A stretch of 64,000 bases of DNA, the filler included, from Sphacelaria rigidula (taxonomy: Eukaryota), in the NCBI GenBank assembly GCA_964200075.2. It is 4 parts of 4 records of this genome, joined end to end, with 100 filler letters (N's around TTAATTAATTAA, not from the genome) between each part and the next. Parts side by side here need not be neighbours in the genome. Positions count along the whole stretch, not along the records: positions 32,209 to 48,208 come from CAXNAA020001527.1; 3 more parts are not named here. The stretch is one strand, 5' to 3'. The notes below the pieces were generated by a model. That model saw only the letters and a list, made by a program, of their open reading frames with translations, was not told the origin of the DNA and did not search any database. The first letter of the stretch is position 1, and every line of letters begins with the position of its first letter. Below, piece by piece: positions 13,820-48,308 of this stretch. A program made the position numbers and the translations under genes.

Positions 13820-16005
13820 CTTCCCTTGGATTTCCTCTTCCATGACCATTTTCCATCTGTCAGCATCAGGTTCCGCCAGGGTTTCTTTCGCTGTCGGCGG
13901 TTCCTGTGGTCCAATGACGATTCCGCCCCCGAGAATGCAGAATGCGCCGTTGTCCTGATCTTGTAGAAGGGTGGCGAGGAAATTTCCGTCATCAGAACTG
14001 CTGCCGTCAAAACTTCTAAAGCGTTGCTGTGCGTTATCCCCTCGATGCCGTTGCGCTAGTCGACTGGACCTGCGCAGTCCACTGTCCGGAGAAGAGCGCT
14101 TCGATGATGTCGAATCCTGTGGTGGCTGTCCACCCGGGCTATCATCGCCGTCGATTGGCGCTGCTTCCTTTTCTTCCGATGGTTCGTCCTCGTCATCACT
14201 GAGTTCGACCGCCTCCAGCTCCCCTACAATGCCCAGGATATTGGCCTCAGATTCAAACATGATGTGTGAAGACTTGACGAGCTTTTATTCCTGTAACAGC
14301 CATACATACCAGCAGAGAGAGTGCCGATCGTGTGCCCCACCAAGATGCCCCGCTTCGCTAATGGGTGGAACTTCGCAGCGGCGCCGCGTTGCTGCTTGTG
14401 CTGATGCACGAAACACTCCGATCCCCAAGTACGAAGTCGGTCGTAGTGGAAAGGCTTTCCTGTCAGCCTCTCACATAGGGTCTCGCCCCCGAGGTACTCG
14501 TGGGGCATCCCTGCGGTCTTGAATGCCGTGTCCGCCACAGCGAAGAATCAGTAGTCCTCAGTCCTCTCCGCGTCCGGCTTTCACTAGTTAGCTGCGTGCT
14601 GTCCTCATCAGTTGTTGAATTGCACGTTCAGCAATCCCATTACTCTGCGGTGTCCTTGGCGGTGAGTTGCCCCATTTGATGCCGTGATTGGTCAGCATGC
14701 GTTGAAATTTGACTGACCGTCCAAGTTCCCGAGCGCCGTCTCCGCTGATGCATTTGATGGCCACTCCCTCACGGGCCATTTCGTCGATGTAGGTTCCCGT
14801 GGCGTCAGTGGCCGCATCTCGTGTCTTGAGTCCAACAACGTGCTTGTCTCGACTGGCCTTGTCCACGAAAACCTGAAAGTAGTTCATACCTGTGACATCG
14901 GCGTGGAAAGGGCCTTCAAGATCAGTGTGCACAACTTCACCTGGTCCTTTGGGACTCCTGCCGCCGCGGCCGTAGCTGAGCGCCTCGGACTTGCATTCCT
15001 TGCAGACGCTGCAGCGCATCTCGGACGTCACCGTGGTATCAGTGACATCGATCAGCCCACGCTTCTCGAGGTGTTTTATGGCAGCCGGATCGATGTGCCC
15101 TAAGGTGTCGTGCCACTCCTTCAATGTGAGGCGCTGCTTCTTGTTTGCGAACGAAGCGTGCGCCGACGCCGCATGTTTGCCATCCCCTTGCAGCGATACC
15201 GACAGTGTCAGGAACCCTCTATTCTCGGCTAGGGGGGTCTTCGGTCCATCCTTTCTGAACCGAAGGTAGCTCCCCTTTCTGCCGGAATTCACGAATTCTC
15301 CTCCGTCACGCCGAATTGTTCCGGTAGTCAGCGTCCGGCAAGGTAGTCCAGGGACCCAAAGTACGTCCTTCAGTGTGACCTTTGCCGAAGCCACCTTTCG
15401 ATTGACATGTTTGTGTGAGTGTTGGTCGACGTGCACATGGATACTACTCGCTCATCTTCGACCACCACGTTCATCGTCATGAATGCCTGCGGTATTTCCC
15501 TCCTCCCATTACTTCTACCGTTTTGTGGAGGGGGTGGGAACGTTCGTGCGGGGCTCATCCCCGGCGGTCGTTTCGCTGGAGGTTTGCCGTTAAGGTAGGG
15601 GCGACACTCCCGCCATCTATGATTTCGCTTCAAACAGTAGGCGCATTCTATCGATCCCCGAATCGGTTTTGTTGCCGTCGGTTCTCGATTGGAACGCTAC
15701 TGCCTCGTCGCGGCATTCCATGTCAGACGTTAGATATGCTGATGATGCTACGACTGCCCATTTTAGCTCATCGTACGTCACACGTGGCTGGGTTGTTAGC
15801 TGGATGAATACTTGTGGAAGCGCCTCCTTGATCCCGAGTAAAAGGGCTGCCCTTTTAGTCTCGTCGGCTTTGGCGTTTCCCAGCGCTTCGAATTCCCCCC
15901 AGATGGTGTCCAGCTTCACCATGAAATCTGCTGATTCTTCTGCAGAATTGCATTGGAGATCCCGCAGTCTTCGTTCCAATGCAAGTAGTTGCACAGGCCG
16001 CTCGT
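13820..16005 (-). mobile_element. Ty1/Copia LTR retrotransposon fragment (gag, CCHC knuckle, integrase, RT start), frameshifted and truncated
   Basis: Gag-like 15617-15994; CAYCLKRNHRWREC knuckle at ~15605-15650; EWHDTLGHI...CSVC (HHCC); VHTDLEGP...TPQSNGIAER integrase core at 14588-15436; RLRTWGSECFVH/AKRGILVG; EPPTAKETL...WKMVMEEEI at the RT start. Integrase precedes RT, which is the Copia order. Confidence 0.9.
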
Positions 16006-16105
16006 NNNNNNNNNNNNNNNNNNNNNNNNNNNNNNNNNNNNNNNNNNNNTTAATTAATTAANNNNNNNNNNNNNNNNNNNNNNNNNNNNNNNNNNNNNNN
16101 NNNNN
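16006..16105. other. Artificial contig spacer 44N-TTAATTAATTAA-44N
   Basis: Exactly 100 bp, identical to the other two spacers; the core has stop codons in all six frames. Confidence 0.97.
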
Positions 16106-18257: not shown

Positions 18258-21200
18258 GATACACTCCTGTCACTCAAGATCAGATTGCCACGTGGACTCC
18301 TCCCATCACGGGTACGTGGACTTCAGCAGCTTTAGTTATTCATGTATTAACCCTCAGCACAGTACAGGAGAACAGGATCATATAGCCTCTCTCCACCAGA
18401 GTAATAAAACCGGCTGTACTCGTCATGGAGGTCACCATCACAGAGTCCAGCAATCAGACCCGCGACTCCACCTACAATGCCCCTGACCTCAGGTAACAAT
18501 GGTGGCTATAGTCTACAGCACCCCCAAAGATCTCTCCTACAAGTAGTTACATCAGAGCTTGACGAACCCAGACATCATTGGGGCCTGATAGTACCGTCGT
18601 TTTCCGCAAAGAATAGCAATCTCTTCCGCTGCTTTCGCCAACAGCTCCATACAGGCTTGCCCCACTTCCAAACAACTCGCAAGAGATTCCAAGACAATAT
18701 CGTCCATCATAAACATGCAACCACACTACTTGCACCACTTCGAGTTACAAAGCGATAGCTAGCGCCAAATTCTCAAATCTTCGCCCAAAACAAGTCTCTT
18801 GACTCTTCATGGGCACGCAACCGAAAATAACAGCGAACGTCAAATCCCAGAGCATTCGTGACTCATCGCCTCTCTCACCAGAGACAACGTTCAACACCAG
18901 CGCAACGGAGTGCAATAGCCAAATGATACATCATCCTCATGCTAGAAGAAAACAATGCATCCAACACGCCTAAAACGCACTTGGAATCTTGCTTCTGCAA
19001 CACCGTAAAAAACGTATGCATCGCATGCCTCCCCGCCGTCAAAGCTCCCATGCTTCAACTTGCCTTCATTTCATAAAGACAATCAAAGGAAAGCCATGGC
19101 TCAGACCGCTTTCAAGTCATGCATACTCAACCAACGACGGCGAACATACGTCGACCTCCGCCATCATTCATCACCCGTAGTACTATCGTTCTCAAAGTCT
19201 TGCTTTCGAGCAAATCCCGGACATTTCTATATTTCGTTTGGATCTTGGACCGTCATATCCCATCCGTGCATCAGCCAACATGTAAATATAACGATCTCCT
19301 CGACTCTCTTGCAGTCCACCTGCACCAGTTCTTTGAACAAATGGACGCATCATCCACATGCTCTTTCTGACATGAACGAAAGACCAACCACGTACTCGTT
19401 CAAACACGTGACAATCCATACAAGAACATGCCACGGTCAAAGATCAGTGATGCATGCCTGCATAGTGTCTTTATCTTCAACCACCGGAAGCACTCGCGTC
19501 ATACGTGCTCACATACGACGAGCCTACGCATTTCGTAGGTTTTGCTCATTTTCACGCTAACAGCAGCAATCCATATATCCTGCAGTCAGTACGTGCAAAC
19601 CGCACAAATACGATTCGACTGTGTTCCTGCGCGAGTAAGATTATACGAGCTTCACGTCATTTAGCATACAGCAGTATATTGAAAACTGCCCCACTCTAGG
19701 TCGTCACCAGATACCATTCATATCAGTACCATTCGAGCAAAAATTCGCACATGCCTGCCAGAATTCCACTCAGCATATGAAAATCCGCACATGCATGCCT
19801 ATATTTCACTCAGCACATGCAATGTCACCTTCCTCGCAGCAAACACCATGCATCATCCATGCCAACCAGATCGGTGCAACACACGCATGCCAAATACCCA
19901 CGTGTACGCCAGACTTTTACCCTACACACGCGATACGATCATACTGGCTCAATAACCATGTTTCATGCGCAAGCATGACCATAAGCCACACAATAACAAG
20001 CTGCAATCATTTTCAGAACGATTCGCGAATACCAGTCATAATGGATGTGTTTCCTCATTCTCAACAAGCACTCAATCACCACAGCACTTACTCCTCAACA
20101 TCAGTACCCCACTCGGCGCTCACCACAAACGCAAACACCTCAGGTAATGCCTTCTTTGTAGTCCTCCAGCCCACTCCTGAGAAACAGCAGCACTCGAACC
20201 ACAACCCAGTGCACAGCGTAGAGCAGCCTTTCCTCTCGGACGCTCTCTCCTTGCACCTTCAGTCTAGCTACACCTGGCACCCCCATGATGTAGCTCAACA
20301 CGCCTCTAAAAGTTATATTCGCACCGCCAAACCAATGCGACAAATCCCCCGCCCCCACAGACACTTGCGCAGTACTGAACAACTGTGCTTCAGTCAGTTT
20401 TACAGAGGAAACCAGAGGCGAAACGGAAACAGCTACACAGTCCCGAACAGCAACACCTCCTGATGGCACACTACCCTCCTCAAACACCCCGCGGCGAAAC
20501 AGTGGAGACACGTCCGCCATCGCCGCCAAATACGCCAAACCTGTCCATGTAAACAGCAATGCACACGACCACTTCAACACCACGCGACGCTCGTCATCGC
20601 CGTCAGAATTGTGATCGCTAACAGCATCACGAGCCTGCAACTCGCTCTGCGGACCCGCTTCACACGGGTCACACGCCCCTGTTGTTTCGCTCATGCAAGC
20701 CGTGTCCACAGCTACGCGCTGCTCCGGCGGCAATTCCGCCAACCCGGCATCCACCTGTCGTTCAAGCAGACACCCCTGCGAATCATCCGAAAGATCTCTT
20801 GCCATGTCACTGGCGCAGATAGATTCACCATAAGCACGGCAAGCTCCTTGCTCACCCTCCCCGTTCACAATACGCGAATAAGACCCCCCTTCAGCTTCGA
20901 GCATGCAAGGAGTATCTCCAGCTCTGCGCTGGTCCGGTGGCCACAAGCAACCGGGACCTCCGCCAACCAGTACTTGCTCATTGGCGAATGTAGGCCCCGC
21001 CCTCGCAACATCGCCAACAGCAGCAGCAGTATCACCCATACTCGCTCGCTACAGCCGCCACTTTTTGCTCAGCGCACTCCTGAACTGCAACAGCGGCAGC
21101 TGAGCGGCCTGCAGTCTGCTCGAGCGACGTGACATATTCGCCCTCTCCAGCAGAAATACCAGCAGCTTCCAAACCAATTCTTACCGTGGTACTTTCGGCG

Positions 21201-22579
21201 GGCGCGTACTCATGCCTCCCCGCTTTGATAGACACGTGCTGTGTCTCCTTCCCGCTTTGCACTGTTTCTATCGTGGGTTAAGACGCGCCATACCGGGCTG
21301 CACGTTCAGCGGTTGCACTATCGCGCCTATCCCATCGGGCAGACACATGCTTCTCGGCTGTCACAGGGCAAGCAGCTGCCCTGTATCGTTGTTTCAAACG
21401 CGCAGCACCTACTGCACGTTCGACGGGTGCGCTGTCGTGCCTGTCCCCTCGGGCAGACACATGTTTCTCGGTTGTCACAGGGCAGGCAGCTTCACCGGAC
21501 GGTGCATGGTTGCGTAACGCGAAAAGCAACTGCTCGTCCTCAACATCATAATCATGTTGCAAGAACATGTCACACAGAAATATAACAATATATTTCGGCA
21601 TGAGCTCAGAAACTGCTGCCACCTCAAAGAGGTTTGTCCACCGCGCGTTCACCTGTTCTACATCCCGCAAATATTGCTCGTATTTGCGTAAAAACTCGCC
21701 CGATTTCTCGCTCGAAAATTTGCGGCCGTAGGACGGCATCTCCAGCGCCAGTATAGGAACAACACGACCGACGATGGCATATTCCTGCGCCTCGTACATT
21801 TCAGTCAGCAGGACAGTACTCCACACGCCGTTTTGAAAAACGAAGTCGCCTCCCACTCACAGGAACAACAACTCTCCCCTTTCACCGAGACGCGCTGTTC
21901 CACCTTACAACGATAATGGCCACAGCGCCTCTTCCTCACGCAGGTCTCCTCACCACATGTTTGAAGTCCTTACACTCCTGTTCATGGCCGTACTTGGCCA
22001 AGCGTGGAACAAGCAACTCTCGCTGGCTCCACTAGGCAGTACGATAATTGCGCCGCTTTTTCTGGAACGCGCATAGGCTCGCCAGCTGTCGATCAACGCT
22101 CCGCACCTCTCGCACGAGCGATACCACAGCCCACCCTAGCACTGCCTCAGAACCTCCCCGGCTCTACTTTTCCAACTCTTGCGACGTTAACACGCCTGGA
22201 GCTGGTCTTGTTTGCTGCAAACTGATCAGGCCTGCAGACTTCTCTATCTTGAAATGTCAGCTGCTTTTCAGCGGACCTACCGCCTCAGCGGACTTAATNN
22301 NNNNNNNNTAATGAACGTTCATTATAGACTTCAGTCACTCAAGATCAGATTGCCATGTGGACTCCTCCCATCACGGGTACGTGGACTTCAGCAGCTCTCA
22401 ATATTTATGTATTAACCCTCATCATAGTACAGGAGAACAGGACCAGATAGCCTCTCCACCAGAGTAACAAAGCCGGCTGTACTCGTCATGGAGGTCCCCA
22501 TCACAGAATCCGGCAATCAGACCCGCAACTTCACCTACAAAGTCCCTGACCTCAGGTAACAATGGTGGCTAGGTCTACA
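18258..22579 (-). mobile_element. Complete non-autonomous Gypsy-type LTR element (copy A, ~4.3 kb)
   Basis: LTRs at 18258-18517 and 22323-22579; 4-bp TSD CAGC (18254-18257 / 22580-22583); GCACCCCCAAAG next to the 3' LTR; gag-like ORF 21278-21856; no intact pol. Confidence 0.88.
21278..21856 (-). CDS. Gag-like ORF with C-terminal 38-aa repeats (element copy A)
   Basis: PSYGRKFSSEKSGEFLRKYEQYLRDVEQVNA...QLLFALRNHA aligns with the chromovirus gag at 41900-42625 (PSYGNLYFECASRSFYTKYVEYKKRVEHANA...QLAAAIKKHA). Confidence 0.7.
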   Translation of the reverse strand: MGGDFVFQNGVWSTVLLTEMYEAQEYAIVGRVVPILALEMPSYGRKFSSEKSGEFLRKYEQYLRDVEQVNARWTNLFEVAAVSELMPKYIVIFLCDMFLQHDYDVEDEQLLFALRNHAPSGEAACPVTTEKHVSARGDRHDSAPVERAVGAARLKQRYRAAACPVTAEKHVSARWDRRDSATAERAARYGAS

Positions 22580-23435: not shown

Positions 23436-24200
23436 TGTGAACCTGTCTGGAATCAGGACAAGGTTACAGTGCTGCTCCAGGGGCTTCTTCCCTGTCACGG
23501 GCTCCAGAGACTTCAAGGCTTGAGCAGTCTTATAAACAGCAGTCTTTTGTTAACCAGAAGTGACCCTTTTTTGATCCCCTCACAAACACAATATGTTACG
23601 CATTCAACAATCATCCTCCAAGCCGTTGTCACACGATCCAAAGTGATATCCATATGCTACCGTTCTCCTCATGCTAGAGGTGCTACTGTACTTTCTCTAC
23701 AGCAACCCCAAGCTACGTTCTACTCAAAGGTAGAAAACGAGCATGATCATCAGTAGACATCGACAACAAATCTGGGATGTCAACAAAGAACAATCATGCG
23801 AACGATCACCAAGCGGTATACTTGACGAACACCAACCGCATGATACAATCCATCCACGAAGTACCAAGATAACCAGTCATAGTTTGATACCATACTTGGT
23901 CTTCAGACGCTCCCGTACCTCCTTATTCAGTCTCAACTTTCGCAGTTAAGATCGTACAAACTGCGGCGCTCCTCTCCAAATAACATCCCACGGCTCCCAT
24001 GATCTTTCGTCCTCGTCGAAATCTACCCATTCCACACGTACATCGTAGCCATCTCCTTCGTGAGCCTCAGATATCCCGACGATAACCTCCATCTCGAACT
24101 CTCCTGAAGCATATGCATGCTGGAACACCTCCTTCAGATCTGCAGTGACCTCCAGTTCCTTGTCCGCATTGTACCAAGACAGGTGACATGCGCGTCTTTT
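23436..24200 (-). mobile_element. 3' end of a chromoviral Gypsy element: chromodomain and probable LTR (~23436-23633)
   Basis: LEVTADLKEVFQHA...VRVEWVDFDEDERSWEPWDVIW chromodomain, homologous to 37602-37870; TGTGA...TCACA-bounded ~200-bp segment preceded on the minus strand by CTTTGGATCG. Confidence 0.72.
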
Positions 24201-24334
24201 TCCTTGCCATTCACGATATTCTGAATCTCGTAGACATGTTTTTGCTCCGCTGCCACGATCCTTCAAGGCCCTGTCCACGTACTTGCGAGTTTCGGCGTTG
24301 TTCCTGAGCGCACAACTGCATGTTCTACGACACA

Positions 24335-24975
24335 CAGATCACGTGGTGCGGAAAGGTCTTTTCAGGTGGTCAAGGGGCTCATGACCGCGAGAGACTGAGC
24401 GGGCTGGCCAATCTTAAGCGTCCGCGCACAGCAGGCGAGCTTATGCAGTTCCTGCAGTAGGTACACTGGCTGAGAACGTCCCTGTCGCGTTTGGCGGAGG
24501 TGGTGGAGCCGCTGCGGGTATTACTCGAGGAACACATGCAGGGCAACGTGCGCCGTACCAAGCGAGTGGCGTCAAACCGGACAATCCAAGAGTCGGCATG
24601 GACGTCCCGGTGTGCTCAGGCGTGGCACGAGGCGCAAGATTTGGTGGCGCATGCTGTCGCTTTGTCATATCCCAAGCAGGGGTATGAGGTTCTCATGTTT
24701 CCAGACGCATCGGATCTACACTGGGGAATTTTTCTTACGCAGGTGCCGGAGGATGGGCTGGGTGGTGCATTGGCGGTGGAAGACATGAGCCATGAGCCGA
24801 TGGGGTTTCTTAGCGGAACTTTTCGTGGAGCGCAGGTTCGGCAGGCTACGGTGGACAGGGAAGGCTATGCAATCGTAAGTACTTTCCATAGGTTGGATTA
24901 TCTTCTCGGGGGTGGGGTTCATATCTTCACCGATCATCGTAACCTAGAATACATTTTTAAGCCCGAGGCGTGTCG
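24335..24975 (+). mobile_element. Gypsy RT C-terminus / RNase H fragment
   Basis: LAEVVEPLRVLLEE...LMFPDASDLHWGIFLTQVP...HIFTDHRNLEYIF, homologous to 39350-39980. Confidence 0.85.
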
Positions 24976-25979
24976 AACTGCACGTGCGCAGCTTCTGTTG
25001 ACCAATTTTCCCCTCATGGTTTTTGATCCAGGTAGTCAAATCTATCTCAAGGACTGTATAACTTTTCCCCTGTGTGGTGCACCGTGATAGTACTCGTGAC
25101 TCGCGCCTCGTGCTGCTTGGTGCTTGCTGCGGCGCTTGACTGCACACCTTGTGCCATGCTGGGCCAACGCGCATCGCACGCCAACTCCGCCTTGCTGTGT
25201 TTTTGTGTATTTTTGTGATATACGCATATGCACGATGCACTGTGGTACGCGCCGCGTACACAGCGTAACCCCACCTGGTCATTCAGTGCAGCACGGTCAC
25301 ACGGCCAGCCATCCCTGGCTCGCGTATTTGGTCTTGTTACCCTCTCTTTTCTGACAGGAGAACTTTTTTACCACAGGTTTGTTACAGAACAACGCTGCAA
25401 AGGGTGCATCGTCGCTCACAGCCACCTGTTGTTCCCTACTTGAGCCTCGGCCCAGCCAGCTATCCGCCGCTTTCACATTTCAGTATCGATTGTACACGGC
25501 TGGTGCATCTTTCGTTTATGGGTCGTTCGATAATATAACCCGTGCCTCCCCAACAGGTGACTACGGACATGTGTACACGAGAACTGTACCCGTTCTGGCA
25601 CCTTCGCTGCGTCGCGATATACGCCACTCGTAGCTAGTTTGTTGTTGTTATTCTCTTCTAGTGTACTATGCACATCTGTAGAGCAGCGCTGTATATCACC
25701 GTGGTAATTACCAATACTCAGCCCAACGGACTGTGATACTTTTCTCATTGAACCCCTCTCGGCCAAAGAAATAATAAACTGTCCCGAGACCGTTCCGTCG
25801 CGATAATACTCGCTTGTAACATCCCAGACCTACGTTACGTGCTCACTTGGAGCACACGGCACTCAAAACCAGTGCCCCTTGGCTGTGTACCACTTTTTCG
25901 GCACACGCCCTCAGCGTTGCCCTTGTTGCGCACGACTTCAACGTTCATATATGTACGTCGCCCCACCTCCGTTGGGTAA

Positions 25980-28900
25980 TAAAGACTTCTGTCACTCAAG
26001 ATCAGATGGCCATGTGGACTCCTCCCATCACGGGCGCATGGACTTCAGCAGCTTTGGTTATTCATGTATTAACCCTCAGCATAGTACAGGAGAACAGGAC
26101 CCTAGTGTCTCTCCAACAGAGCAGCAACACCGGCTCTACTCGTCTCGGCGGTCACCATCACAGATTCCGGCAATCAGACCCGCAATCCACGGACACAATG
26201 TCCCTAATCTTAAGTAACAACGGTGGCTAGAGCCTACAGCACCCCCAAAGTTCTCTACTACCAACAAGTAGTTACATCAGGGCTTGACACACCCAGACAT
26301 TATTGGTGCCTGATAGTACCGTCGTTTTCCGCGAAGAATGACAACCTCTTCTGCTGCTTTCGACAAAATCCAATACAAGCTTGCCCCACGTCCGAACAAC
26401 TCGCAAGAGATCCCACGAAAATATCGTCCATCATGAACATGCAATCACGCTACTTGCACCACTTCGAGTTACAAAGCGATAGCTAGCGCCGAATTCTCAA
26501 ATCTTTGCCCGAAAGAAGTCTCCTGACTCTTCATTGGCAAGCAACCGTCAAATTCCAGAGCAGTCGTGACTCATCGTGCCTCTCATCCGAGACAAGGTAC
26601 TTCTCAACATACACAATGCACTCCTTGTACGTCCAACACCTGCGCAACGGAGTGCAACAGCCGAATGATACATCATACTGACGCTAGAAGGAAATAAGCA
26701 CCCAACACGTCTAAAACGCACCTGGCCTCTTGCTTCTGCAACACCGTAAAAAACGAATGCATCGTATGCCTCCCTGCCGTCAAAGCTTGAATGCTTCAAC
26801 TTGCCATCATTTCATAAAGACAATCAAAGGAAAGCCATTACTCAAACCGCTATGCAAGTCATGCATACTATCCAACGACGGCGAACGGACCTCGATCTCC
26901 GCTATCGTTAATCACCCCTTGTGATCTCGTTTTCGAACTCTTGTTTTCGAGCAAATCCCAGATATATCTATATCTCGTTTGGATCTGGGACCGTCATATC
27001 CCATCCGTGCATCAGCCAAAATGTAGATATAATGAATTCCTCGACACTCTTGCAGTCCACCTGCACCAGTTCTTCGAAGAAATGGACGCATCAGCCACAT
27101 GCTCCTTCTGACATGAACGAAAAACCAACCACGTGCTCGTTCAAGCACGTGAAAATCCGCACAAAAATTTGCCACCGTCAAAGATCATTGATGCATGCCC
27201 GCATAATGTCTTCATCTTCAACCACCGGAAGCACTCGCGTCATACCTGCTCACATACGACGAGCCCACGCATTTCGTATCTTTGAGCTCATTTTCACGTT
27301 AACAGCAGCATTCCATATCCTTCGAAGTATCCTGCAGTCAGTACGTGCGAACTGCACAAATATGATTCGACTGTGTTCCTGCGAGAACTAGATTATACGA
27401 GCTTCCCTTCATTTAGCATACACAGCAGTATATTAAAAACTGCCCCACCCTAGGTCGTCACCAGATACCATTCATATCAGTACCATTCAAGCAACAATTC
27501 ACACATGTCTGCCAAAAATCCACTCAGCATATGAAAATCCGCACATGCATGCCAATACTTCACCTAGCACATGCAATGCCACCTTCCTCGCAGCAAACAT
27601 CATGCATCGTCCGTGCCAACTACATCAGCACAACACGCACATGCCAAATATCCACGTGTACGCCAGAGTTTTACCCTGCACACGCGATAGGATCATACTC
27701 GCTCAACAGCCATGTTTCATGCGCAAGCATGACCACAAACCAGACAATAACAAGCTGAAATCATTCTCAACACGCACCCGATCACCACAGCACTTGCTCC
27801 TCAACATCAGCACCCAACTCGACGCTCATCACAACAGCGAACACCTCAGGTAATGTCTTCTTTGTAGTCCTCCAGCCCGCTCCTGAGAAACAACACTCGA
27901 ACCACAACCCCGTGCACAGTGTAGAGCAGCCTTTCCTCTCTGACACTCCCTCTTTGCACCTTGAGTCTTGCTACACCTGGCACCACTATGGTGTAGCTCA
28001 ACACGCCGCTCAAAGGTATATTCGCACCGCCGAACTAATGCGACAAGTCATCTGCCTCCCCCGATACTTGGGCAGTACTGAACACCTGTGCTTCAGTCAG
28101 TTTTACAGAGGAAACCGGAGGTGAAACGGGAACATCTACACAGTCCCGAACAGCAACACCTCCTGATGGCACACTATCCTCCTCAAACACCCCGCGGCGA
28201 AACAGTGGAAGCACCTCCGCCATCGCTGTCATATACGCCTAAGCTGTCCATGTAAACAGCAGTGCACACGACCATCCCAACACCGCGCGACGCTCGTCGT
28301 CGCCGTCAGAATAGTGATCGCTAACGATTAATGCCGAGATAGCCCCCCCACGAAACGGGCACCGGCACCATCCAACGAACCGGCTGCACGTTTTGCAGCA
28401 ATTTCGCCCACATGAGAGGCGTGTAGCAGTCCGAAATCAGCTATAACGCCCAATTCAGTCGCGTTGTGTAGAACGAAACAAGCTTGAACGGCACTTATTG
28501 ATCATCGCCTCTGTGCACGTTTTCGGCCGGTTTGGGGGAGGGGCTATCTGGGCAGCAGTCTAACAGCTTCACGAGCTTGCAGCTCATTCTGCGTACCCGC
28601 TTCACGCGGGTCACACGCCCCTGTTGCTTCGATCACGTAAGGCGTGTTCACAGCTACGCGCTGCTCCGGCGGCAATCTCGCCAACCTGGCATCCACCTGT
28701 CCCTCCAGCAGACACCCCTGCGAATCATCTGAACGATCTCCCGACATGTCACTGGCGCAGATAGATTCACCCTGAGCATCGCAAGCCCCAAGCTTGCTCT
28801 GCTCACTCTCATCACGAAGATAAAACCCCCTCGCAGCGGTGTGCATGCAAGGTGTGTCGCCAATCACGCGCTGGTCCGGCGACCACAAGCAACCTGGACC

Positions 28901-30713
28901 TTTGCCGCTCAGCGCTAGCTCATCGGAGCAAATTGGCTTCGCGCTTCCAACAGCAGCGGCGGCAGCGGCTGGATCAAATATCCCCGCTTCAGCCACCACC
29001 TCCTGCTTAGCGTACTCCTGAACGGCAACAGCGGCAGCTGAGCTGCCTGCAGTCCGCTCGAGCTGCGTGGCATGTTCGCCCTCTCCAACAGCAATACCAG
29101 CAGCATCCAAACCAATGCTTACCGTGGAGCTGTCGGCGGGCGCGCTCTCATGCCTACCCGTTTTGACAGACACGTGCTGCGTCTCCTTCCCGCTCTGCAC
29201 AGTGGAAATAGCTGCCCTGTATCATGGTTTTAGACGCGCCCTACCGACTGCACGTTCAGCGGGTGCACTATCGTGCCTATACCCTCGGGCAGAAACATGC
29301 TTGTCGGCTTTCACAGTGCCGGCATCTGCCCTGTATCGCTGTTCCAAACCCGCAGCACATACTACACGTTCGGCGGGTGCACTGTCATGCCTGTCCCCTC
29401 GGGCAGACACATGTTTCTCGGCTGCCACAGGGCAAGCAGCTGCGCTGTTTCGTTGTTCCAAACGCCCAGCACCTACTGCACGTTCGGCGGATGGACTATC
29501 GTGCCTGTCCCCTCGGGCAAACACATGCTTCTCGGCTTTCACAGTGCAAGCAGCCGCACGGGACGGCGCATGCTTGCGCAACGCGAGAAACAACTGCTCG
29601 TTCTCAACATCATAATCATGCTTCAAGAACGTGTCACACAGACATTTCGCAAAATGTTTCGGCATGAGCTCAGAAACTACTGCCACCTCAAAGAGGTTTG
29701 TCCACCGCGCGTTCACCTGATCTACATCTAGCGCATATTTCTTGTACTTCCGTAAAAACTCGGCCAGTTCTCGCTCGAAAAACTGCGGCCGTAGTACGGC
29801 ACCTCCAGCGCCAGTACAGGGACAACACGACCATCGACGATGACATATTTCTGCGCCTCATCATGGAGAACAGTCGAACAGGCTTGGTCGCTCGCCACCT
29901 CCACGGTTCTCATCAAGCGCCGAGCTACCACAACATATTTACATAGTGAACACTCACACAGCAAAATCACACAGCAGCACCTCAACAGCTCGAAAGCTGT
30001 TCCAGAAAAAACAGCGTTGTTTCTCTATCACAGAAACAATACAATAACCTTCCATATACCAAGACGCGTTTCGCCACCAAACGACAATGGCCACAGCGCC
30101 ATTTCCTCACGTAGGTCTCACCACGTGTTTAAACTCCTTAGACTCCTCTTCTCGAACGCGGCTGGCCAACCTCGAACCAGCCCTCTCGCAATTCTCCCGT
30201 CTCGAGTAGTAGTTGCGCCGCGTTTTTTGGAATGCACACGGGCTCGCCAGCTGTCGATCAACCCCCTGCACCTCACGCACGGGCGATACCACAGCCCGCC
30301 CTGGCATGCCTCAGAACCTTCTCGGCTTTACTTCTCTAATTCCTCGCGGCCTTAACACGCCTTGAGCTGGTCTTGTTTGCTGCAAACTGATCAGGCCTGC
30401 AGACTTCCCTATCTTAATGTGTCAGCTGCTTTTTCAGCGGACCAACTGCCTTTCAGCGGACATAATGAATGTTCATTGTAGACTTCTGTCACTCAAGATC
30501 AGATGGCCATGTGGACTCCTCCCATCACGAGCACATGGACTTCAGCAGCTTTGGTTATTCATATATTAACCCTCAGCATAGTACAGAAGAGCAGGACGAT
30601 GGACTCTCTCCACCAGAGGAGCAAAACCGGCTCTACTCATCACGGCAATCAGACCCGCAATCCACGGACACAATTTCCCTAACCTTAGGTACCTGTGGTG
30701 GCTAGAGTCTACA
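25980..30713 (-). mobile_element. Complete non-autonomous Gypsy-type LTR element (copy C, ~4.7 kb)
   Basis: LTRs at 25980-26238 and 30477-30713 (TGTAGACT...AGTCTACA termini on the right LTR); 4-bp TSD GTAA (25976-25979 / 30714-30717); frameshifted gag at ~29222-29870; colinear with copy A. Confidence 0.88.
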
Positions 30714-32108: not shown

Positions 32109-32208
32109 NNNNNNNNNNNNNNNNNNNNNNNNNNNNNNNNNNNNNNNNNNNNTTAATTAATTAANNNNNNNNNNNNNNNNNNNNNNNNNNNNNNNNNNNN
32201 NNNNNNNN
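32109..32208. other. Artificial contig spacer 44N-TTAATTAATTAA-44N
   Basis: Exactly 100 bp, identical to the other spacers. Confidence 0.97.
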
Positions 32209-36986: not shown

Positions 36987-37239
36987 CTCACGGATTTGTT
37001 CAATCTTTTGGGTGGGTATCTAAATTCACATGCTGTGAGTGTTGATGGTGTACCTCAACGCCTCCACGGTGGTACCCCAATCGGTACTTTTAGTGGGTGC
37101 TAGGATTGGAGTTTCACCGCGTTCGCCTGGTCCGAATAATCTCAGGTGGTCGGAAGCGAGAGAGGTGGATGCTAGTAACGCTAACTGGTCCTCTTCGTCG
37201 TGTTGTATTTTGGCAAATATAAAATCATCTACACAAACC

Positions 37240-37498
37240 GGTGACGCCAGCAGGTTGCTAGTACTGCAGCGTCTAATGCTGTTGAGGGACTCCCCAGTTA
37301 CACTGGCCTCAGGTTTCACTTGTTCGCCTTCACAACAACATTTATTATCCTGGAGTGCCACCCAGGCACATACGCTCCATAAACCACACCAGGGTATCAA
37401 CCCTGTGTCTATGTCATCATACATATCATCACTACATATCCCAAGTGATCATCCATATCATCACTATATACTGGACGTGACGGCATGATTTCGTCACA
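37240..37498 (-). repeat. 3' LTR of the Gypsy element
   Basis: About 90% identical to 42896-43154, same length. Confidence 0.93.
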
Positions 37499-40400
37499 GC
37501 ACCCCCAAAGCGCGTTGGACGAGAATCGAGCAACAAGCTTAACACCCAGAAAATTAACGCCAAAACGATTGAGCAAGTCACAACTGAATTCCAAACCCAC
37601 GCTAAATGCAAGCAGCAATGGAACGAGTCACTCGCACCTTACGCAACTCCTTTTTGAGAAATTCCGAAGCGGCCTCCGAAATATTTTCAACAGGCTCCCA
37701 CGTACGCTCCTCGACTCCAAAACCAACCCAGTCGACCAAAATGATCAACGAACGATCCTCTGCCTCTGCCACGCGAGCAATCCCAGCCATCTGAAATTGC
37801 CGCTGGTTGGAAGCGTGCTGAAACACATCCTTCACGTCTGCCGTTACATTAAGCTGTGAGTCTACATAAAAACGCAGACGAGCTACATGGGCGGTCTGAA
37901 CACGACCCAAAACAATGTTTTGGATCTCGAACACATGTGGGTGATGAGCAACAACCACTCTCCACGGACCAGTCCACGTCGCCATTACTTCAGGCGTAAC
38001 TCCCGGGCGACGCACGCGTGCATACAACAAATAATCACCTACCTTGAAATTCGGCAATTTCAGCCCCGGCAGAGACCCCTCACGTCTACGCGCACGTTCA
38101 GCGGCAACACGCTCCTGCACTTGAACGTGGAAGCTTTCCTGCAACTCCAAACCTCCTTGCAACGCGCGCTTCAGTTGCGCATCACCCAAGACTCACAGTT
38201 CCATTCCCCCGCCGATGAGGACGCCAACACCGAGATAGACATCCGAGGGGCACGACCGATCATCACGTCACACGGCTTACTACCGTATCGATGGCGATAT
38301 GCTGTATTTCGTGCCCATTGCACAGCGGGCAACACGTCCACCCACTCGGTCACCTCTCGACGCTGCTCGAGAAGAATAGATCGAAGAGCAAAAACTACTT
38401 CCTTAAGCGTGTGTTCGCACGTGCCGTTAGACCACGGAGAATATGCCGCCGCAAACCGGTGATCAACGTGTAATGCCTCTCACAAGCGGGTCAAGATCAT
38501 GTTCTTGAAATGCGTGGCGGTATCACTCATCCACACACGCGGTACACACACACGCGGTACCCCCAAAGTTTTGCACCAATTCAGCAAAGATGCAGCGGTC
38601 GATTCGGTAGTACACGCTGCTACTGGTTCCAGAGACACGAAGTTGCTCAAATCATCCATGATTACTAAAATGTATCGAAACCCAGCATCCTCCAACAAAC
38701 CTTGGGAAGCTAGCGGGCCACTTTCGCCCACGTACAACAAGTCAAAATGAACGACTTCATTCGGCGTGGTCCCATGGACCGTTTCAACGAGCGGGCGGGA
38801 AACAACATCACACGCCCTCGAGTTAGCACAGTGAAGAAGACACTGTCGGACAAACTCTCGCATCAGAGATTCTATTCCCTTACAAATACGAAAATCTTGC
38901 AAGCGCACCAGTGTCGCAGCCACACCGCGATGCCCGGCATCGCGCATGTGCGCACAAATCATCAAACGTATCTGCAATTGTTTGTTTGAGCTGGGAATCC
39001 ACAGCACGTTTCGGCCACGTACATGCACACGAAACAAACCTTCATTGTCCAAAACCACAGTAACAACATCCGACTCGAAGGATTGCACATCCGCATCTGT
39101 GGCCCCAAGTTCTTTCCGTTGGGCTTGGCGGACCACAGATTTCGACGGCATCAAATCATCCGCTTCACACAAACCAGATACAGTCTCAGCTCGCGCGGGC
39201 ATAGTGGGAATATTCACCCAGCGCGACAACAAGTCACCCCATGCGTTACGCTCACCCAAAATATGACAAATCGTGTACCGATACCGACCTAATACACCTT
39301 TTCACCAATGCAATCGCTGTGCCAACGCCTTCGACATAGACATCACGCATGCCTCCGGGTTGAAAATGTACGCTGGATTCCAGTGATACGTGAATATGTG
39401 CACGCCATTTCACAATAGATGCTCGAGACGACGAAACGTGCTCACGATAGCAAAACCTTCCTTGTCAACAGTTGCCAAACACATCTATGAACCCTTGAAA
39501 CTACCACCAAGCAAGGTCGGCGGTTCATGCATCATTTTTTCAACCGGCAACCGTTGTTGCATTTCTGCATCAGGCACCTGCGTTACAAAACTACCCCAAT
39601 GACACTCGGATGCATCCGGAAACATCAACACCTGGCACCCGGGGCGGGGATGGAACAGCGTCACGGCATGATACACCACATCCTTCGCTTCCGCCCATGC
39701 CTGCAGCCTATCCTCCGTCCACAATGCGGGCGGAATAACGCGGCTTTTGGTCACCCGCTTCGTGCGCCTTGCAGCCCCCCCCATGAGTTCTTATAGCAAA
39801 ATACGCAAAGGCACCACTACATAGGCCATACGTGGCAACGAGTTACCCAACCAGTTCATTGCGTGCAGGAATTGCAATATTTCTGCTACTGTTTCTGGAC
39901 ACCGCATATTAGACAAATCTTGCAAGCGGACCGGGTCATGCGAGACGCGGCCGTGTGAATATGCTTTTCCACACCACCGTAATTCTCTAGCAAAAAAAGG
40001 TACACTTGAGGGTAGCTGCAAACAGACCAGCACTCTGTAAGCGAGCCAAGATTGCATCAACCGTATCCAACAGTTCGCCTTCTGTATCCGCGAAGAAAAA
40101 ACATCATCCACCCAGATCTTGCATTTCAAGCCATCCAAAGGGTCTACCATGAGACCTTGAAATAAGAAGTAGCATTCAACACACCTTGCGGTGCTTGTTG
40201 CGAGGTAAACATGCCAAACGGAGTCGTGATGATGGTGAATATCTCTTGCGCCTCTTCGGCCAAAGGCATCTGCCAGTACCCCTGTAGGAGGTCCAACTTA
40301 CCGATGCATCGCGCACTCACCAGGTCTATCATGTCGGATTCCTGATTGGACATGACACCCGGCGACTTCTCCACCTGATCATTGACGGCTCCGTAATCGC

Positions 40401-42895
40401 TGACAAGACGGACAGAGTCCTTCTTCGGCACCGCCATCGCTGGACTGGACCACGCCGCCTACAGATTCCTGAACACCAACCCAAACGTCACAAGAGCTCC
40501 CATGCAAGAAGCTAACCAACTGGACTTTACCGAATCATACCTCCTCGGTTTTGCCTTTACCGCGACCGCCCTGGCTTCAGTGTAACCCTCATGGGTTCCA
40601 CGCGCGCAGGGGGATCATCCATCAGCGCATGACGAAACGCTTAACATGGCGATACAATATGCCACGCAAGCGCTCCGCTTTTGAGACGTTGAGGCCATTT
40701 GCCACAGCATCCGTCACGCCTTCCTCCAGTGCAGCCATTCGCGCAGACTCCTCTTCTGTCGGCTCCGTAAACATATCGGGGCCACGCTCCACCAAGCGTT
40801 CCACCGCCTCATCACGCTCCTCGGACACCTGCCCCCCCGCCTCCTGGAGAGTATCGACTGGCCAAAAAAGCAGGCGTCTCGACACTCGAGCCGGGCGACG
40901 GCATTTGGGTTTTTAGGGACTCTAATAACCGATCATACGGGTCGACTCCGAGTTCCCGAAGAGTCGGTAACCCCAACAGAACGACACCATCCGTCCCCGG
41001 CATGATCGCAAACGGTATCGGGGGTAAATTCGCTGGCCCCCAGGTCGTCCTGAGTGTCAACTGTAGGGGAATTGTACGCTCCATGGCATTTACACGTTGC
41101 CCCGATGCGGTGATGGCCTGCCGCGCCCCGAGCGAGAACGGAATGCGGATTTGCTCACCAGGGAGTAGACGCTCCAGCATCTCCACAATCAGCACCGACA
41201 CGCTCGTGAAATGGGCGCCTGAATCCAACCCAGCGTTGACCGATATGGCTCCCCGCGACCATTGATTTGAAATATATAACTCTTCAGGAATATAATTTTC
41301 TTGATACTCAACTGGCACCTGCTCCGCCGACTGATTTGTCGTGATCCCCACTTGGCGCCACGGCTGCACGTGCGGCGCAGGCATAGACGCCCCCGCTGGG
41401 GCATCTCCGCCGACGGGTACGAAGCCCCGCCCGCAGAACTGAATTGCAGCGGTACTCCGGCCGACGCAGCAGCGGATCCAAATTTCAGCTGAAATCCAGC
41501 CGGCTCAGCAGCAGGCGTCTCGCCTTGCTCTGCTGCCGGCGGCGCCGACACCGAATCCGATTCTTGAGTGGTTGGTCCCACCTGCACCGCCCGTTGCGGA
41601 GCAGCAGCCCCTGCGACTGAGCCGCACCCAGATTCGGACCCCTGCTGACGCCGCTGCCTCTGCTGCTGCTGCTGCTGCTGCTGCTGGGACCGGGAACACC
41701 ACTGCCCACCTCCACCGCTGGAGGATCAGCCTCCGCCACCAGCCCGATCAGCTTTTCCTCCTTTGTGATTGCGAGGGCGCACGGCACTTGTCTGCACAAA
41801 CTCCCCCTCGGAAGGCGTTGGGCACTTGCGTGCGTAGTGGCCTACCTGGCTACACTGAAAGCGAGTGATATTGGCGGCCGCACTGCCTGTGGATTTTGAT
41901 CAGCGATTACGCGAGCTCGAAGAATACGGCGACGAAGTGGATGATTTCCCGAATACTTCAACCTTCCGCCATGCCTGAGCCTCAGCCACCACGGTATACA
42001 TAACTAAGTACGGGTCTGACTGCCAATTGGTTTCGTGCTGGAATTGCACAAGCACGACCTGTTTGAGTTCTGCCGGTGCCAGACCCTCCACCATCGCTTT
42101 CGTGATCACCGCAGCGGGCCCTGGACGGAATTTCCCATTGGAGGAACGATAAACCATCTCGACGTTGGGATTTTCGCAAAAATATGTCTCCAACTTTGCC
42201 ATGATTGGCTCCACCCTCTCACGCATGGTCTTCCCCTTGTGGTTCATGGCGACAGCCTTCGCCACGGCCGCGGACGCCTGGGCTAGCTTTACCTCAGCGC
42301 CCGCCGCATGCCTTGCATGCTTCTTGATCGCTGCAGCTAATTGCAGCGGCGTTATTGTGTTCTTCTCATGGAATCTTGTGGCAAAAACGCGTTGGAGGGG
42401 GGCAGGCACGAATTGTGCCATGAATACCAGCTCATGCCTTACCGCACCCCCCGCATTCGCATGCTCCACCCGCTTCTTGTACTCAACATATTTCGTATAA
42501 AACGAACGAGAAGCACACTCAAAATACAAATTCCCGTAACTGGGAGACAGCAACTCTTCTCTAATTACAACTGGGGTCACCGGCGTCTCCGCTGGCTCTT
42601 CGGTCGGCACTTCTGTAGTCGACATTTCCGCGCGGACCTAATCAAAGTCTTCTGAACCTTCTCGAACTCAACGATTCACACCTACCTTCGTTGCCGCACC
42701 AACACAGCCGTGGGATCCTATAAATACCCGCTGCACGCAGCTCCAGCAAGTGTCCAGTCTGGACCAATCACGGGTCAGCCGCCTTTGCAGCACCTCAGCA
42801 ATATGTCCGAAGCTGTCCAGACTCCTCCCTACTGAAACATTTCCAGCAGTCACTAACGATAGCACTACTAGCACGACTAGCGCTAATATCGATAT

Positions 42896-43154
42896 TGTGA
42901 CGCCAGCAGGTTGCTAGCACTGCAGTGTCCAATACTGTTGAGGGGCTCCCCGGTTACACTGGCCTCAGGTTTCACTTGTTAGCCTTCACAACACCTTTTA
43001 TTATCCTGGAGTACCACCCAGGCACATACTCCCCATAAACCACATCAGGGTATCACCCCTGTGTCCATGTCACCATCCATATCATTACTATAAATCCCAA
43101 GTGATCATTCATATCATCAATATATACTCGACGTGACGGCGTGATTTCGTCACA
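42896..43154 (-). repeat. 5' LTR of the Gypsy element
   Basis: TG...CA ends with 7-bp terminal inverted repeats. Confidence 0.93.
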
Positions 43155-44022
43155 AACCACAGCAAAGAAGAGGTCGTCAGGTCCCCCTCCCTTCGACGGG
43201 ACCACTCCGATGTTAGGCGGTACTGCCGTGGGCGGACCCACCTCCCATGGCGGGACTATTCGTACGTGTTCCAGCATCCTCCTTTTTTCCTCGAGTATGT
43301 CTACATTGTTCGGAGTAGTACGACAGTGAGAATGTTCTATGGGTTGCGAGAGCAGCCCCCAGAAATCTGGGGATCCCGTCCAGCCGAAGGTGAGCCGAAA
43401 ATCAGCTACCAAGATATCGTTGATCACGTAGCGACACTTGTGCGCATGTTCTGCGGCGACGCGCACGTTTCGGAAAGCGTTCGCTACATCGGCTTTGACA
43501 AGAGAATCCGTTTGTGTGGGAATTTCTTTCTAAGCCGTAGGATTTCTTGTAGTAATTGTGGCAAGGCCTCGGCGCAAAGACAACCTGGGATTTCGTCGGG
43601 GTTGGTGACGGCGTTCACTTCTCCTTTCGTACCGGGTTTGGAATCGATGTCGAACGAAAAGTCATGGATAATGCGGACCTTATTGGTGACAACTGCTCCT
43701 GATGGAGCTACTCGCAAATGCTCAATTTCTTGGGCCGCTGATCGGTTCAAAACCAGGCATCTGTTCCTCTCAGACATGTGAGGTGTGGCCGTCGATACTT
43801 CTGTGGTTACCGTATTCGAGTGTTCGCCTCAAGCCCGGTGCGGTTTCTGTCGTGTCTATCGGCACACCCGTGTTCGAGGATGTGCATAAGGTTTTCTATT
43901 TCCGAAAAACGTTTTACTTCTCCAAAATGGTGGTGGACTTCACGGAGGTTTATAGGCGGTGACACCAGAGTGCCGCCGAGCCTCCCCAACACGTCTCCAA
44001 GGTTCCCGTTGTACAGTCTCAT
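43155..44022 (-). pseudogene. Reverse transcriptase N-terminal part of the YR retrotransposon
   Basis: LRVAPSGAVVTNKVRIIHDFSF, ILLSKxDVANAFRNVRV, DFRLTFGWTGSPDFW; continues as VCVDDFIF at 37239 downward. Confidence 0.88.
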
Positions 44023-44239
44023 TCATTCCGTGCATGTCGTTGCCATTTCTTGAATGATCGGTTTTGTTTTGAATAATTATTGTGGTGCTGTCGAAATATA
44101 TATGCATATACTTCCCCCCAATGTATTTGCAATCTTTCAATCGTGTTTTCGTTGTTGTGGTGTGACCCTGCGCGAGACGTTGAAGACGTCGACTCGTCGT
44201 ACATATCTATCTTCCTTGGGCTCGTCCCGGCAAGCATTA

Positions 44240-45190
44240 TCGGCGGGGGTTGGCGAGGAAATAACCTCGCATCTTCTTCTCTCTGTGTATCAACACGCGC
44301 TTCGATTGACCCTTTTTGGGTCTGCACTCGGCGTGCACTACTGCTCGAGTTTGTCCCGACTGATGCCGGAGGGTGACAAGGAAATGGCCTCGTTTTTTTT
44401 CTCTCCAAGTAGTGGTACGCACTTCGATTAGCCCATTTTGAGCCTGCACTCGGCTTGTACCACAACTCGGAACTGTCCTGACGTTTGTTGGGGGTTGAGG
44501 AAATGACCTCGATTCTTTTGATCTCCGAGTACTGGTACGCACTTTGAGTCTGCACTCGGCTTATTCTACTACACGGGTCTTTCCCGACTACAGACGTAAG
44601 TTGACAAGGAAATGACTTCGTTTCGTTTTCCCTCCGAATACTGGTAGGCGCTTCGTTTGACTCATTCTGGGTCTGTACTCGGCTTGTACTACTGCACGGA
44701 TCTGTCCTGACGATTGCCGGGGGTTGACCAGGAAATGACCTCGGTTCTTTTTCTCTCCGGGTACTGGTACGTGCTTCGTTTGACGCATTCTGGGCCTGCG
44801 CTCGACGCGTACTAATACTCGAATCTGACCCGGCTATAGACGGATGGTGACAAGGAAATGACCTCGTTTCTTTTTTTCTCCCAGTAATTGTACACGCTTC
44901 GATTGATCCATTCCGGGTCTGCACTCGGCTTGAACTACTACTTGGGACTGACCCGACTATTGGCGGGGGCTCAGGAGCAAATGACCTCACTACTTTTCTT
45001 GTCTGGGTACTGCTGCGCGCTTCGGTTGGCCCATTCCGGGTCGGCACTCGGCTTGCACGCATACTCGGGTCCCCCCCGACTATAGACGGAGGGTGACGAG
45101 GAATTGTCCTCGCTTATTCTTCTTTGGAGTACTGATATGCGCTTTGTCTGACCCACTCTGAGTCTGTACTCGGCTTGTACTCGCAATCGG
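44240..45190 (-). repeat. ~123-bp tandem repeat, about 8 copies, encoding 41-aa units
   Basis: CTGCACTCGGC-like anchors at ~44322, 44444, 44549, 44672, 44796, 44919, 45042 and 45164; ORF 44019-45062 has repeated SRVQT(Q/R)NGSxEARTSxxRxKExRSFPxxPPxIVGxDxxSS. Confidence 0.9.
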
Positions 45191-48208: not shown

Positions 48209-48308
48209 NNNNNNNNNNNNNNNNNNNNNNNNNNNNNNNNNNNNNNNNNNNNTTAATTAATTAANNNNNNNNNNNNNNNNNNNNNNNNNNNNNNNNNNNN
48301 NNNNNNNN
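48209..48308. other. Artificial contig spacer 44N-TTAATTAATTAA-44N
   Basis: Exactly 100 bp, identical to the other spacers. Confidence 0.97.

Follow-up and report, generated by a model that had tools for sequence, protein, structure and literature searches.

Retrotransposons with long terminal repeats (LTRs) normally prime reverse transcription with a tRNA. To our knowledge, the start of reverse transcription at an element lacking a tRNA site is settled only for Tf1. In this element, according to the Levin laboratory, the primer-binding site (PBS) is reported to lack palindromy and to form a duplex in cis with the transcript's first 11 nt, and this RNA-RNA duplex is presumed to be nicked by the RNase H of the element. 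Here, a window of 64 kb (the whole stretch of DNA that was analysed, composed of four pieces of about 16 kb) from the genome of the brown alga Sphacelaria rigidula (GCA_964200075.2) was investigated, in which two families of LTR elements, a putative Ty3/gypsy element with a chromodomain (family 1) and a second family with two copies (family 2), carry a palindrome at the position of the PBS. This arrangement suggests that, in both families, the start of reverse transcription, or else the pairing of the RNAs, proceeds independently of a tRNA.

The closest described counterpart, called the Conserved Hairpin Site, comes from GalEa, a clade of Ty1/copia elements in Pezizomycotina fungi (PMC5445492; published systems are described here after the available parts of the papers cited). 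These elements possess no tRNA site. Instead, a palindrome designated CHSeq1, which includes the final A of the 5' LTR, reads CTGATCAGT or CTAATTAGT in 85% of the families and varies yet stays palindromic; an inverse-complementary sequence, CHSeq2, follows 12-41 bp downstream, and no complement occurs in U5 (PMC5445492). From its position, the authors proposed that the site replaces the PBS, and in the available text the mechanism was left unexplained (PMC5445492). A paper on bivalve TRIM elements cites the GalEa site and, in the part available, adds no mechanism (PMC6934838). Furthermore, self-priming was predicted for the plant lineages Tcn1 and TAR (PMC6317226). A literature search for palindromic primer sites yielded GalEa and the dimerisation palindromes of retroviruses, and queries for an unusual or atypical PBS gave nothing relevant.

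Both families in the window resemble GalEa in that a tRNA-type PBS is absent, a palindrome counting the final A of the 5' LTR occupies the PBS position and keeps its palindromy although the sequence changes from one family to the other, and no complement was found in the LTR. They differ from GalEa in the superfamily (family 1 is Ty3/gypsy with chromodomain, not Ty1/copia), in the host (a brown alga, not Pezizomycotina fungi), in the length of the palindrome (12-14 bp versus 10) and of the target-site duplication (TSD; 4 bp versus 5), and in the counterpart of CHSeq2, of which family 1 has a weak form and family 2 none. The first-pass annotation had raised the possibility of a third priming mode; the arrangement is not the first of its kind, as the GalEa palindrome with the final A of the LTR was already described in 2017 (PMC5445492). 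A palindrome of the GalEa kind at the PBS is thus known; what is added here is a Ty3/gypsy case in a brown alga.

With Tf1/sushi elements, the mode of priming proposed below would share the lack of a tRNA, a primer from the element's own RNA and an RNA-RNA duplex at the PBS, presumably cut by RNase H; in contrast to Tf1, no complement was found in the LTR, and the site is self-complementary. There is also a likeness to the PBS-pal of human immunodeficiency virus type 2 (HIV-2) and mouse mammary tumour virus (MMTV), as there, too, the 5' leader contains a self-complementary sequence at the PBS or close to it; that of family 1 is displayed on top of a predicted stem. The retroviral palindromes, however, comprise 6-10 nt and lie in or beside a true tRNA-complementary PBS (PMC5874298, available part), whereas the palindrome described here makes up the whole candidate site.

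Two LTR families with a palindrome directly behind the 5' LTR

On the element strand, the 5' LTR of family 1 has GTCACA at its end, and ATATCGATATT comes next; the final A of this LTR (position 42896) is at the same time the first base of the palindrome. The first-pass annotation had described a perfect 12-bp palindrome overlapping the LTR end, and the window indeed reads AATATCGATATT at this place (Table 1). This 12-mer occurs only once in the window, and neither the family 1 nor the family 2 element contains a second copy of its own palindrome within 2 mismatches. Also the earlier statement that a TGG, the complement of the CCA end of tRNAs, is missing was borne out: no TGG-type tRNA site was found next to the LTR, and the first TGG follows only about 51 nt (family 1) or 33 nt (family 2 copy B) downstream. 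A search of both palindrome regions against Rfam revealed no RNA family (best match with E 0.67 in one region, no match in the other), and no tRNA gene was detected in the 64 kb.

The second LTR family consists of two copies on the minus strand of piece 2. Its LTR end was moved outward by 8-10 nt beyond the obvious block on the basis of an alignment of the four LTRs, and with this revised end the LTR reads TGTAGACT...AGTCTACA with a terminal inverted repeat of 8 bp. The different palindrome that had been reported at the same position of this family was recovered as the 14-bp AATGAACGTTCATT, which in copy A begins at the last A of the 5' LTR, in a register identical to that of family 1. A gap of ten N lies directly beside the palindrome of copy A, and the outermost T/A pair of the 16-bp version stands at the gap edge; copy B supports the 14-mer without any gap.

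Beside the register, both families have in common the polypurine tract (PPT; TTTGGGGGTGC), similar LTR termini, an LTR length of about 259 nt and a TSD of 4 bp. No recognisable pol was found in the interior of family 2 (about 3.8 kb), since none of the four minus-strand and three plus-strand internal open reading frames (ORFs) matched a Pfam family. Family 2 is therefore probably non-autonomous and, in view of the common PPT, LTR termini, LTR length and TSD, is presumably a passenger of enzymes like those of family 1, without having a primer-site sequence in common with it. Long minus-strand ORFs are present in both interiors (18518-22322 and 26239-30476).

Judged from its sequence, family 1 is a degenerate minus-strand Ty3/gypsy element with a chromodomain. 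Its pol domains follow the order reverse transcriptase, RNase H, integrase and chromodomain, and the best solved relative is the Gag-Pol protein of Ty3 (7q5b, E 2.3e-43). Pfam searches gave weak matches in the order RVT_1, RT_RNaseH_2, Integrase_H2C2, rve and Chromo, all with scores under the curated cut-offs, as expected for a decayed copy; the chromodomain family PF00385 was matched weakly with E 6e-5 and 23.3 bits (cut-off 25.1), and it is carried by the relatives P0007, P0013 and P0016. The LTRs are identical in 234 of 259 positions, corresponding to 90.7% over 258 nt if the terminal base is left aside (37241-37498 versus 42897-43154). The PPT adjoining the 3' LTR was found again as loose ends behind position 43154 in contigs of sequencing runs.

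Among 3031 candidates, 18 proteins were related to the integrase piece of family 1 with E ≤ 1e-10; the closest ones showed 77% and 73% identity, and the nearest named relative, from Ectocarpus sp., 52%. In Ectocarpus, Gypsy families possess a 4-bp TSD and LTRs of 261-309 bp (seven Gypsy rows and the Gypsy-12 row of supplementary table 1; PMC12477816, as far as available). Family 1 agrees with them in the 4-bp TSD and in LTRs of about 260-310 bp, and some of the Ectocarpus families carry a C-terminal chromodomain as well. The designation "chromovirus" is doubtful for family 1; the chromodomain-bearing Gypsy lineages of Ectocarpus are placed phylogenetically outside the chromoviruses (PMC12477816, available part). 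In the main text of the same paper, the terms PBS, tRNA and palindrome do not occur.

The last base of the LTR deserves a separate remark. It is an A in all three 5' LTRs (42896, 22323 and 30477), and C, C and A, respectively, in the 3' LTRs (37240, 18258 and 25980). A-to-C columns are rare in the LTR pairs (2, 2 and 1 in total). If the TSD is read as 5 bp, it would mismatch at its first base in all three elements, and the 4-bp duplications are GGTT, GCTG and TTAC. From the A/C difference and the mismatching 5-bp reading, the final A may belong to the palindrome and not to the LTR, and the last base of the 3' LTR may derive from primer remnants or from untemplated addition.

Chance, conservation and pairing of the palindrome

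Comparison of the two palindromes (AATATC|GATATT versus AATGAAC|GTTCATT) revealed that only AAT...CG...ATT is common to both, and that both are perfect. The inner arms differ between the families and each difference is compensated in the opposite arm. Palindromy, not sequence, is what both families have in common.

In the window, perfect palindromes of at least 12 bp start at 4.6e-4 of the positions, and those of at least 14 bp at 1.3e-4. From these rates, the chance of palindromes in the same register in two families amounts to approximately 6e-8, or to approximately 3e-6 if a slack of 3 nt on each side is allowed for each family. Since the rates are empirical, they already take in the general excess of palindromes in the window, where 29 perfect palindromes of at least 12 bp were counted outside the spacers in comparison to 14.8 ± 3.1 in shuffled sequences.

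To assess conservation, Logan contigs of four sequencing runs (two studies) were aligned to positions 42600-43260 at 80% likeness. Between 361 and 1297 contig pieces per run matched this region, which shows that family 1 is highly repeated. In every run, summed word depth peaked in the bin 42876-42898 with the palindrome (172,695, 225,605, 12,692 and 503,400), exceeding the median over the 11 LTR bins of the respective run about 19-, 14-, 11- and 10-fold. The bin with the last 25 nt of U5 was second or third in depth in each run, and none of the 40 variants listed of 124 lies inside 42885-42896. Some contigs preserve the palindrome together with the LTR tip but depart from the sequence on either side, leaving loose ends at 42876 (two runs, with 15-21 contigs) and at 42907 (one run, with 8). 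Several subfamilies therefore have this block in common. By depth and by the contigs of the four runs, no other block of this high-copy family is as conserved as the one with the palindrome of family 1, so that the conservation criterion set by the first-pass annotation itself speaks in favour of the site. Very probably the palindrome is a selected cis element at the primer-site position.

Relatives with LTRs for a wider comparison were sought in three further scans. The metagenome scan delivered only two loci with 23-24% identity, the genome scan only two short contaminant contigs in records of bacterial metagenome-assembled genomes (MAGs), both without LTRs, and the viral scan none. When both MAGs were searched at the DNA level for the LTR and leader, neither gave a match, and the protein search detected only pol or gag pieces of the lineage.

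Calculations with RNAcofold gave homodimer energies of -10.9 kcal/mol for the palindrome of family 1 and of -16.5 and -19.1 kcal/mol for the 14-mer and 16-mer of family 2. The monomer hairpins reached merely 0 to -2.2 kcal/mol (family 1, 0; family 2, -0.9). In these models, the duplex of two RNAs is favoured over the fold-back hairpin. Of the two possibilities that the first-pass annotation had considered for the self-complementary site, pairing between two RNAs is hence supported by the predicted energies, and folding back on itself is not. The same annotation had found no good complement inside the LTR, and this was confirmed for all three 5' LTRs: in RNAduplex, sites of 12-20 nt paired with their own LTR no better than shuffled sequences did (14-94% of 300 shuffles were as good).

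The palindrome of family 1 is located at the apex of a predicted stem formed by U5 and leader. The 126-nt fold has an energy of -44.4 kcal/mol (z -2.44; equalled by 2 of 200 shuffles). With the majority letters at 42882 and 42918, a G-C pair becomes G-U and a G-U pair becomes A-U; as both affected pairs are kept or improved, the predicted stem survives them. A cluster of short palindromes near the LTR end of family 1 (4 versus 0.79 expected, P 0.009) was not counted as evidence. Three of them lose their symmetry once the majority letters at 42882, 42918 and 42926 are considered, and hence are a property of this copy only; solely the 12-mer is conserved.

Possible start of reverse transcription and alternative explanations

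In standard LTR reverse transcription, U5 ends where the 3' end of the primer anneals, and a primer must therefore pair with the bases directly behind the LTR. As these bases belong to the palindrome in both families, it occupies the priming site by its position. The only complement that was found for it is the palindrome itself, and the only RNA seen with this sequence is that of the element. The lack of a complement in the LTR, together with the self-complementary site, points to pairing in trans. Taking together the priming position, the self-complementarity, the two sequences in families with common cis signals and the preference for a duplex over a hairpin, the simplest reading is that the palindrome is the equivalent of a primer site, at which two genomic RNAs pair PBS to PBS and, after a nick by RNase H similar to that of Tf1, prime themselves. 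The conservation, the place at the apex of the predicted stem in family 1 and the GalEa authors' own inference from position (PMC5445492) also speak for it. We assign this reading a probability of about 40%. That the site primes at all, that two RNAs pair and that a nick occurs are steps which we infer from the arrangement.

In detail, two co-packaged genomic RNAs would pair PBS to PBS through the 12-14 bp of the palindrome. The RNase H of the element would nick one of the RNAs 3' of the duplex, as is reported for the RNase H of Tf1. Such a nick would leave a 3'-OH that is already annealed beside U5 of the partner RNA, and minus-strand strong-stop synthesis could begin from this end. Dimerisation and priming would then be one event, and a host tRNA would not be needed.

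Several points weigh against PBS-to-PBS priming. A primer consisting of R, U5 and PBS would require a second cut, because plus-strand strong-stop synthesis would otherwise run on into it instead of stopping where the palindrome ends. The comparison comprises two families, and the three copies in the window are old, with LTR pairs being about 90% alike. A complement of the kind used by Tf1 could still be present in intact copies and have vanished from these. The fold of family 2 copy B is no better than that of shuffled sequences (z -0.62). Regarding conservation, the depths derive from contigs and not from reads and so do not represent copy numbers, the listed variants are 40 of 124, and the four runs come from two studies, and some of the runs may be the source of the assembly itself.

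The main rival is that the palindrome serves only as a dimerisation or packaging signal, in a kissing loop or an extended duplex like the retroviral dimerisation initiation site and PBS-pal, and that another primer is used. RNA dimerisation is aided by palindromes in the 5' leader, among them those within the PBS of MMTV and HIV-2 (PMC5874298, available part), and the position at the apex of the predicted U5-leader stem as well as the favourable homodimer energies would fit such a role. However, the elements would be left without a primer site at the sole possible place, directly after U5; the retroviral PBS palindromes of 6-10 nt are situated within a tRNA-complementary site, which does not exist here, and a mere dimerisation signal would not have to begin precisely at the last base of the LTR, as the palindrome does in both families. 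We consider this explanation unlikely, albeit a serious one. A hairpin of the GalEa type, in which the palindrome pairs in cis with a downstream segment and the hairpin, perhaps after cleavage, initiates synthesis, is improbable. The geometry corresponds to that of CHSeq1 including the final A of the 5' LTR (PMC5445492, as above), and CTATCGTTAGTGACT, located 23 nt downstream in family 1, can pair with the LTR tip and the palindrome (-10.7 kcal/mol). This partner is weak, as 12% of 500 shuffles were as good, and in family 2 copy B the best value of -5.7 kcal/mol was matched by 61% of the shuffles, so that a partner is missing there. In addition, the depth of the bins 42830-42875 is 40-70 times lower than that of the palindrome bin, and the downstream partner is thus not conserved together with the palindrome.

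Priming by a host RNA, i.e. a tRNA fragment or small RNA whose 3' end matches each palindrome, has precedents in the 1/2tRNA-Met and 1/2tRNA-Ile sites reported for plant Copia lineages (PMC6317226, available part). It would demand two different RNAs, each ending in a perfect palindrome of 12-14 nt, a stretch not to be expected in tRNAs if one considers that their stems are broken by loops; together with the absence of TGG and of any Rfam family in either region, this makes such a primer quite improbable. Even less can be said for cis self-priming by the transcript 5' end as in Tf1, with the complement lost from the degenerate copies. Self-priming is known or predicted for the Tf1/sushi, Tcn1 and TAR lineages (PMC6317226, PMC6934838, available parts), and the LTRs of the present copies have diverged by about 10%, but the RNAduplex result for all three 5' LTRs speaks against it and the self-complementarity in two families would be left unexplained; we regard it as very improbable. 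The least probable explanation is a DNA-level site for a dimeric protein, for instance a transcription or silencing factor, or plain chance. Dimeric DNA-binding proteins generally prefer palindromes, and the window contains about twice as many palindromes as expected. Two different palindromes would require two proteins, however, the register with the LTR end would have no explanation, and the chance probabilities of about 6e-8 to 3e-6 given above argue against coincidence.

If PBS-to-PBS pairing is considered further, its implications reach beyond this alga. The GalEa palindrome has been unexplained since 2017, and the same geometry now occurs in another superfamily and another eukaryotic kingdom, where two sequence variants compensate their changes and the family has a very high copy number. 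This speaks for a solution of general use and not for a peculiarity of fungi. A third way of priming, in which a self-complementary site pairs two RNAs and one of them is cut to serve as primer, might have arisen, or have been retained, independently in brown-algal Ty3/gypsy and fungal GalEa Copia elements, a generalisation that we consider possible and rather doubtful. If true, such elements would be freed from host tRNAs and from silencing based on tRNA fragments, and self-contained priming would mean an escape from host control acting via the tRNA primer site.

Feature coordinates and further elements of the window

The coordinates of both families, the spacers and the gaps are listed in Table 1.

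Table 1. Positions of the LTR elements, palindromes and artificial sequences in the 64-kb window.
Feature	Position	Strand	Remarks
Family 1 5' LTR	42896..43154	minus	259 nt, TGTGAC...GTCACA
Family 1 3' LTR	37240..37498	minus	259 nt, ends GTCACC (last base C; A in 5' LTR)
Family 1 palindrome AATATCGATATT	42885..42896	minus	perfect 12 bp, primer-binding-site position
Family 1 predicted U5-leader stem	42862..42923	minus	family 1 fold, palindrome at apex
Family 1 polypurine tract CTTTGGGGGTGC	37499..37510	minus	abuts 3' LTR
Family 1 target-site duplication GGTT	5' copy 43155..43158, 3' copy 37236-37239	minus	
Family 1 broken gag-pol	37581..42580	minus	matches residues 15-1661 of intact relative P0002
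Family 2 copy A 5' LTR	22323..22579	minus	
Family 2 copy A 3' LTR	18258-18517	minus	TSD GCTG; PPT TCTTTGGGGGTGC from 18518 onward
Family 2 copy A palindrome AATGAACGTTCATT	22310..22323	minus	perfect 14 bp; 16 bp as 22309-22324
Family 2 copy B 5' LTR	30477..30713	minus	
Family 2 copy B 3' LTR	25980-26238	minus	TSD TTAC; PPT ACTTTGGGGGTGC from 26239 onward
Family 2 copy B palindrome	30464..30477	minus	AATGAACGTTCATT with one central CpG-to-CpA change
Spacers N44-TTAATTAATTAA-N44	16006-16105, 32109-32208, 48209-48308		separate the four pieces of about 16 kb
N10 gaps	22299-22308 and 11507-11516		the former beside the copy A palindrome

Beside the palindrome, the leaders of both families contain short repeats. 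In family 1, the palindrome is followed by three repeats of GTGCTAGT, and at the same place in family 2 two direct repeats of GTCCGCTGAAA-GCAG occur. A further block of the family 1 leader (42715-42783), located about 85-150 nt upstream of the gag ATG near 42630, contains ATTGG (the reverse of CCAAT) together with a TATTTATAGG motif. In summed contig depth, this block almost reaches the palindrome, with up to 132,336 in run X1 and 654,781 in run X6. It could act as an internal promoter or as a packaging signal, or it could be a segment common to another repeat.

Pattern searches in viral contigs matched the junction at 2 loci and the PPT at 52 loci; these matches were rejected as chance, as none of the 54 encodes pol. 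A distant gypsy element with a protein 25-30% identical was found in a bacterial MAG record (locus L071, G002:C128, approximately 2540-2980) on a contig of 7.3 kb, the first and last 51 nt of which are identical. It possesses a similar PPT (AAAACTTGGGGGGTGA before TGTAAATG) and, about 390 nt further on, an ordinary-looking TGG-type site (CACAT, then TGGCGTCGAATCGGC), with the boundaries of the element being deduced from one LTR copy only.

Pieces of a third Ty3/gypsy element (23693-24997), whose protein is 52-60% identical to that of family 1 and whose 5' end is absent, were also detected. Its RNase H part lies on the plus strand (24308-24997) and its integrase-chromodomain end on the minus strand (24316-23880); the latter is followed by a PPT-like GCTTGGGGTTGC and TGTAGAG at approximately 23700. 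Among 68 other ORFs of pieces 1, 3 and 4, the sole Pfam match came from the minus strand at 14591-15451, where a fragment of a Ty1/copia-type integrase (gag_pre-integrs and rve) is located. The 29 palindromes of the window include versions of 16-18 bp at 33256, 52188, 52216 and 53016. Finally, a tandem array with a period of 123 bp and copies 63-77% alike (44238-45190) is situated inside a minus-strand open frame of 364 amino acids that matches no Pfam family.

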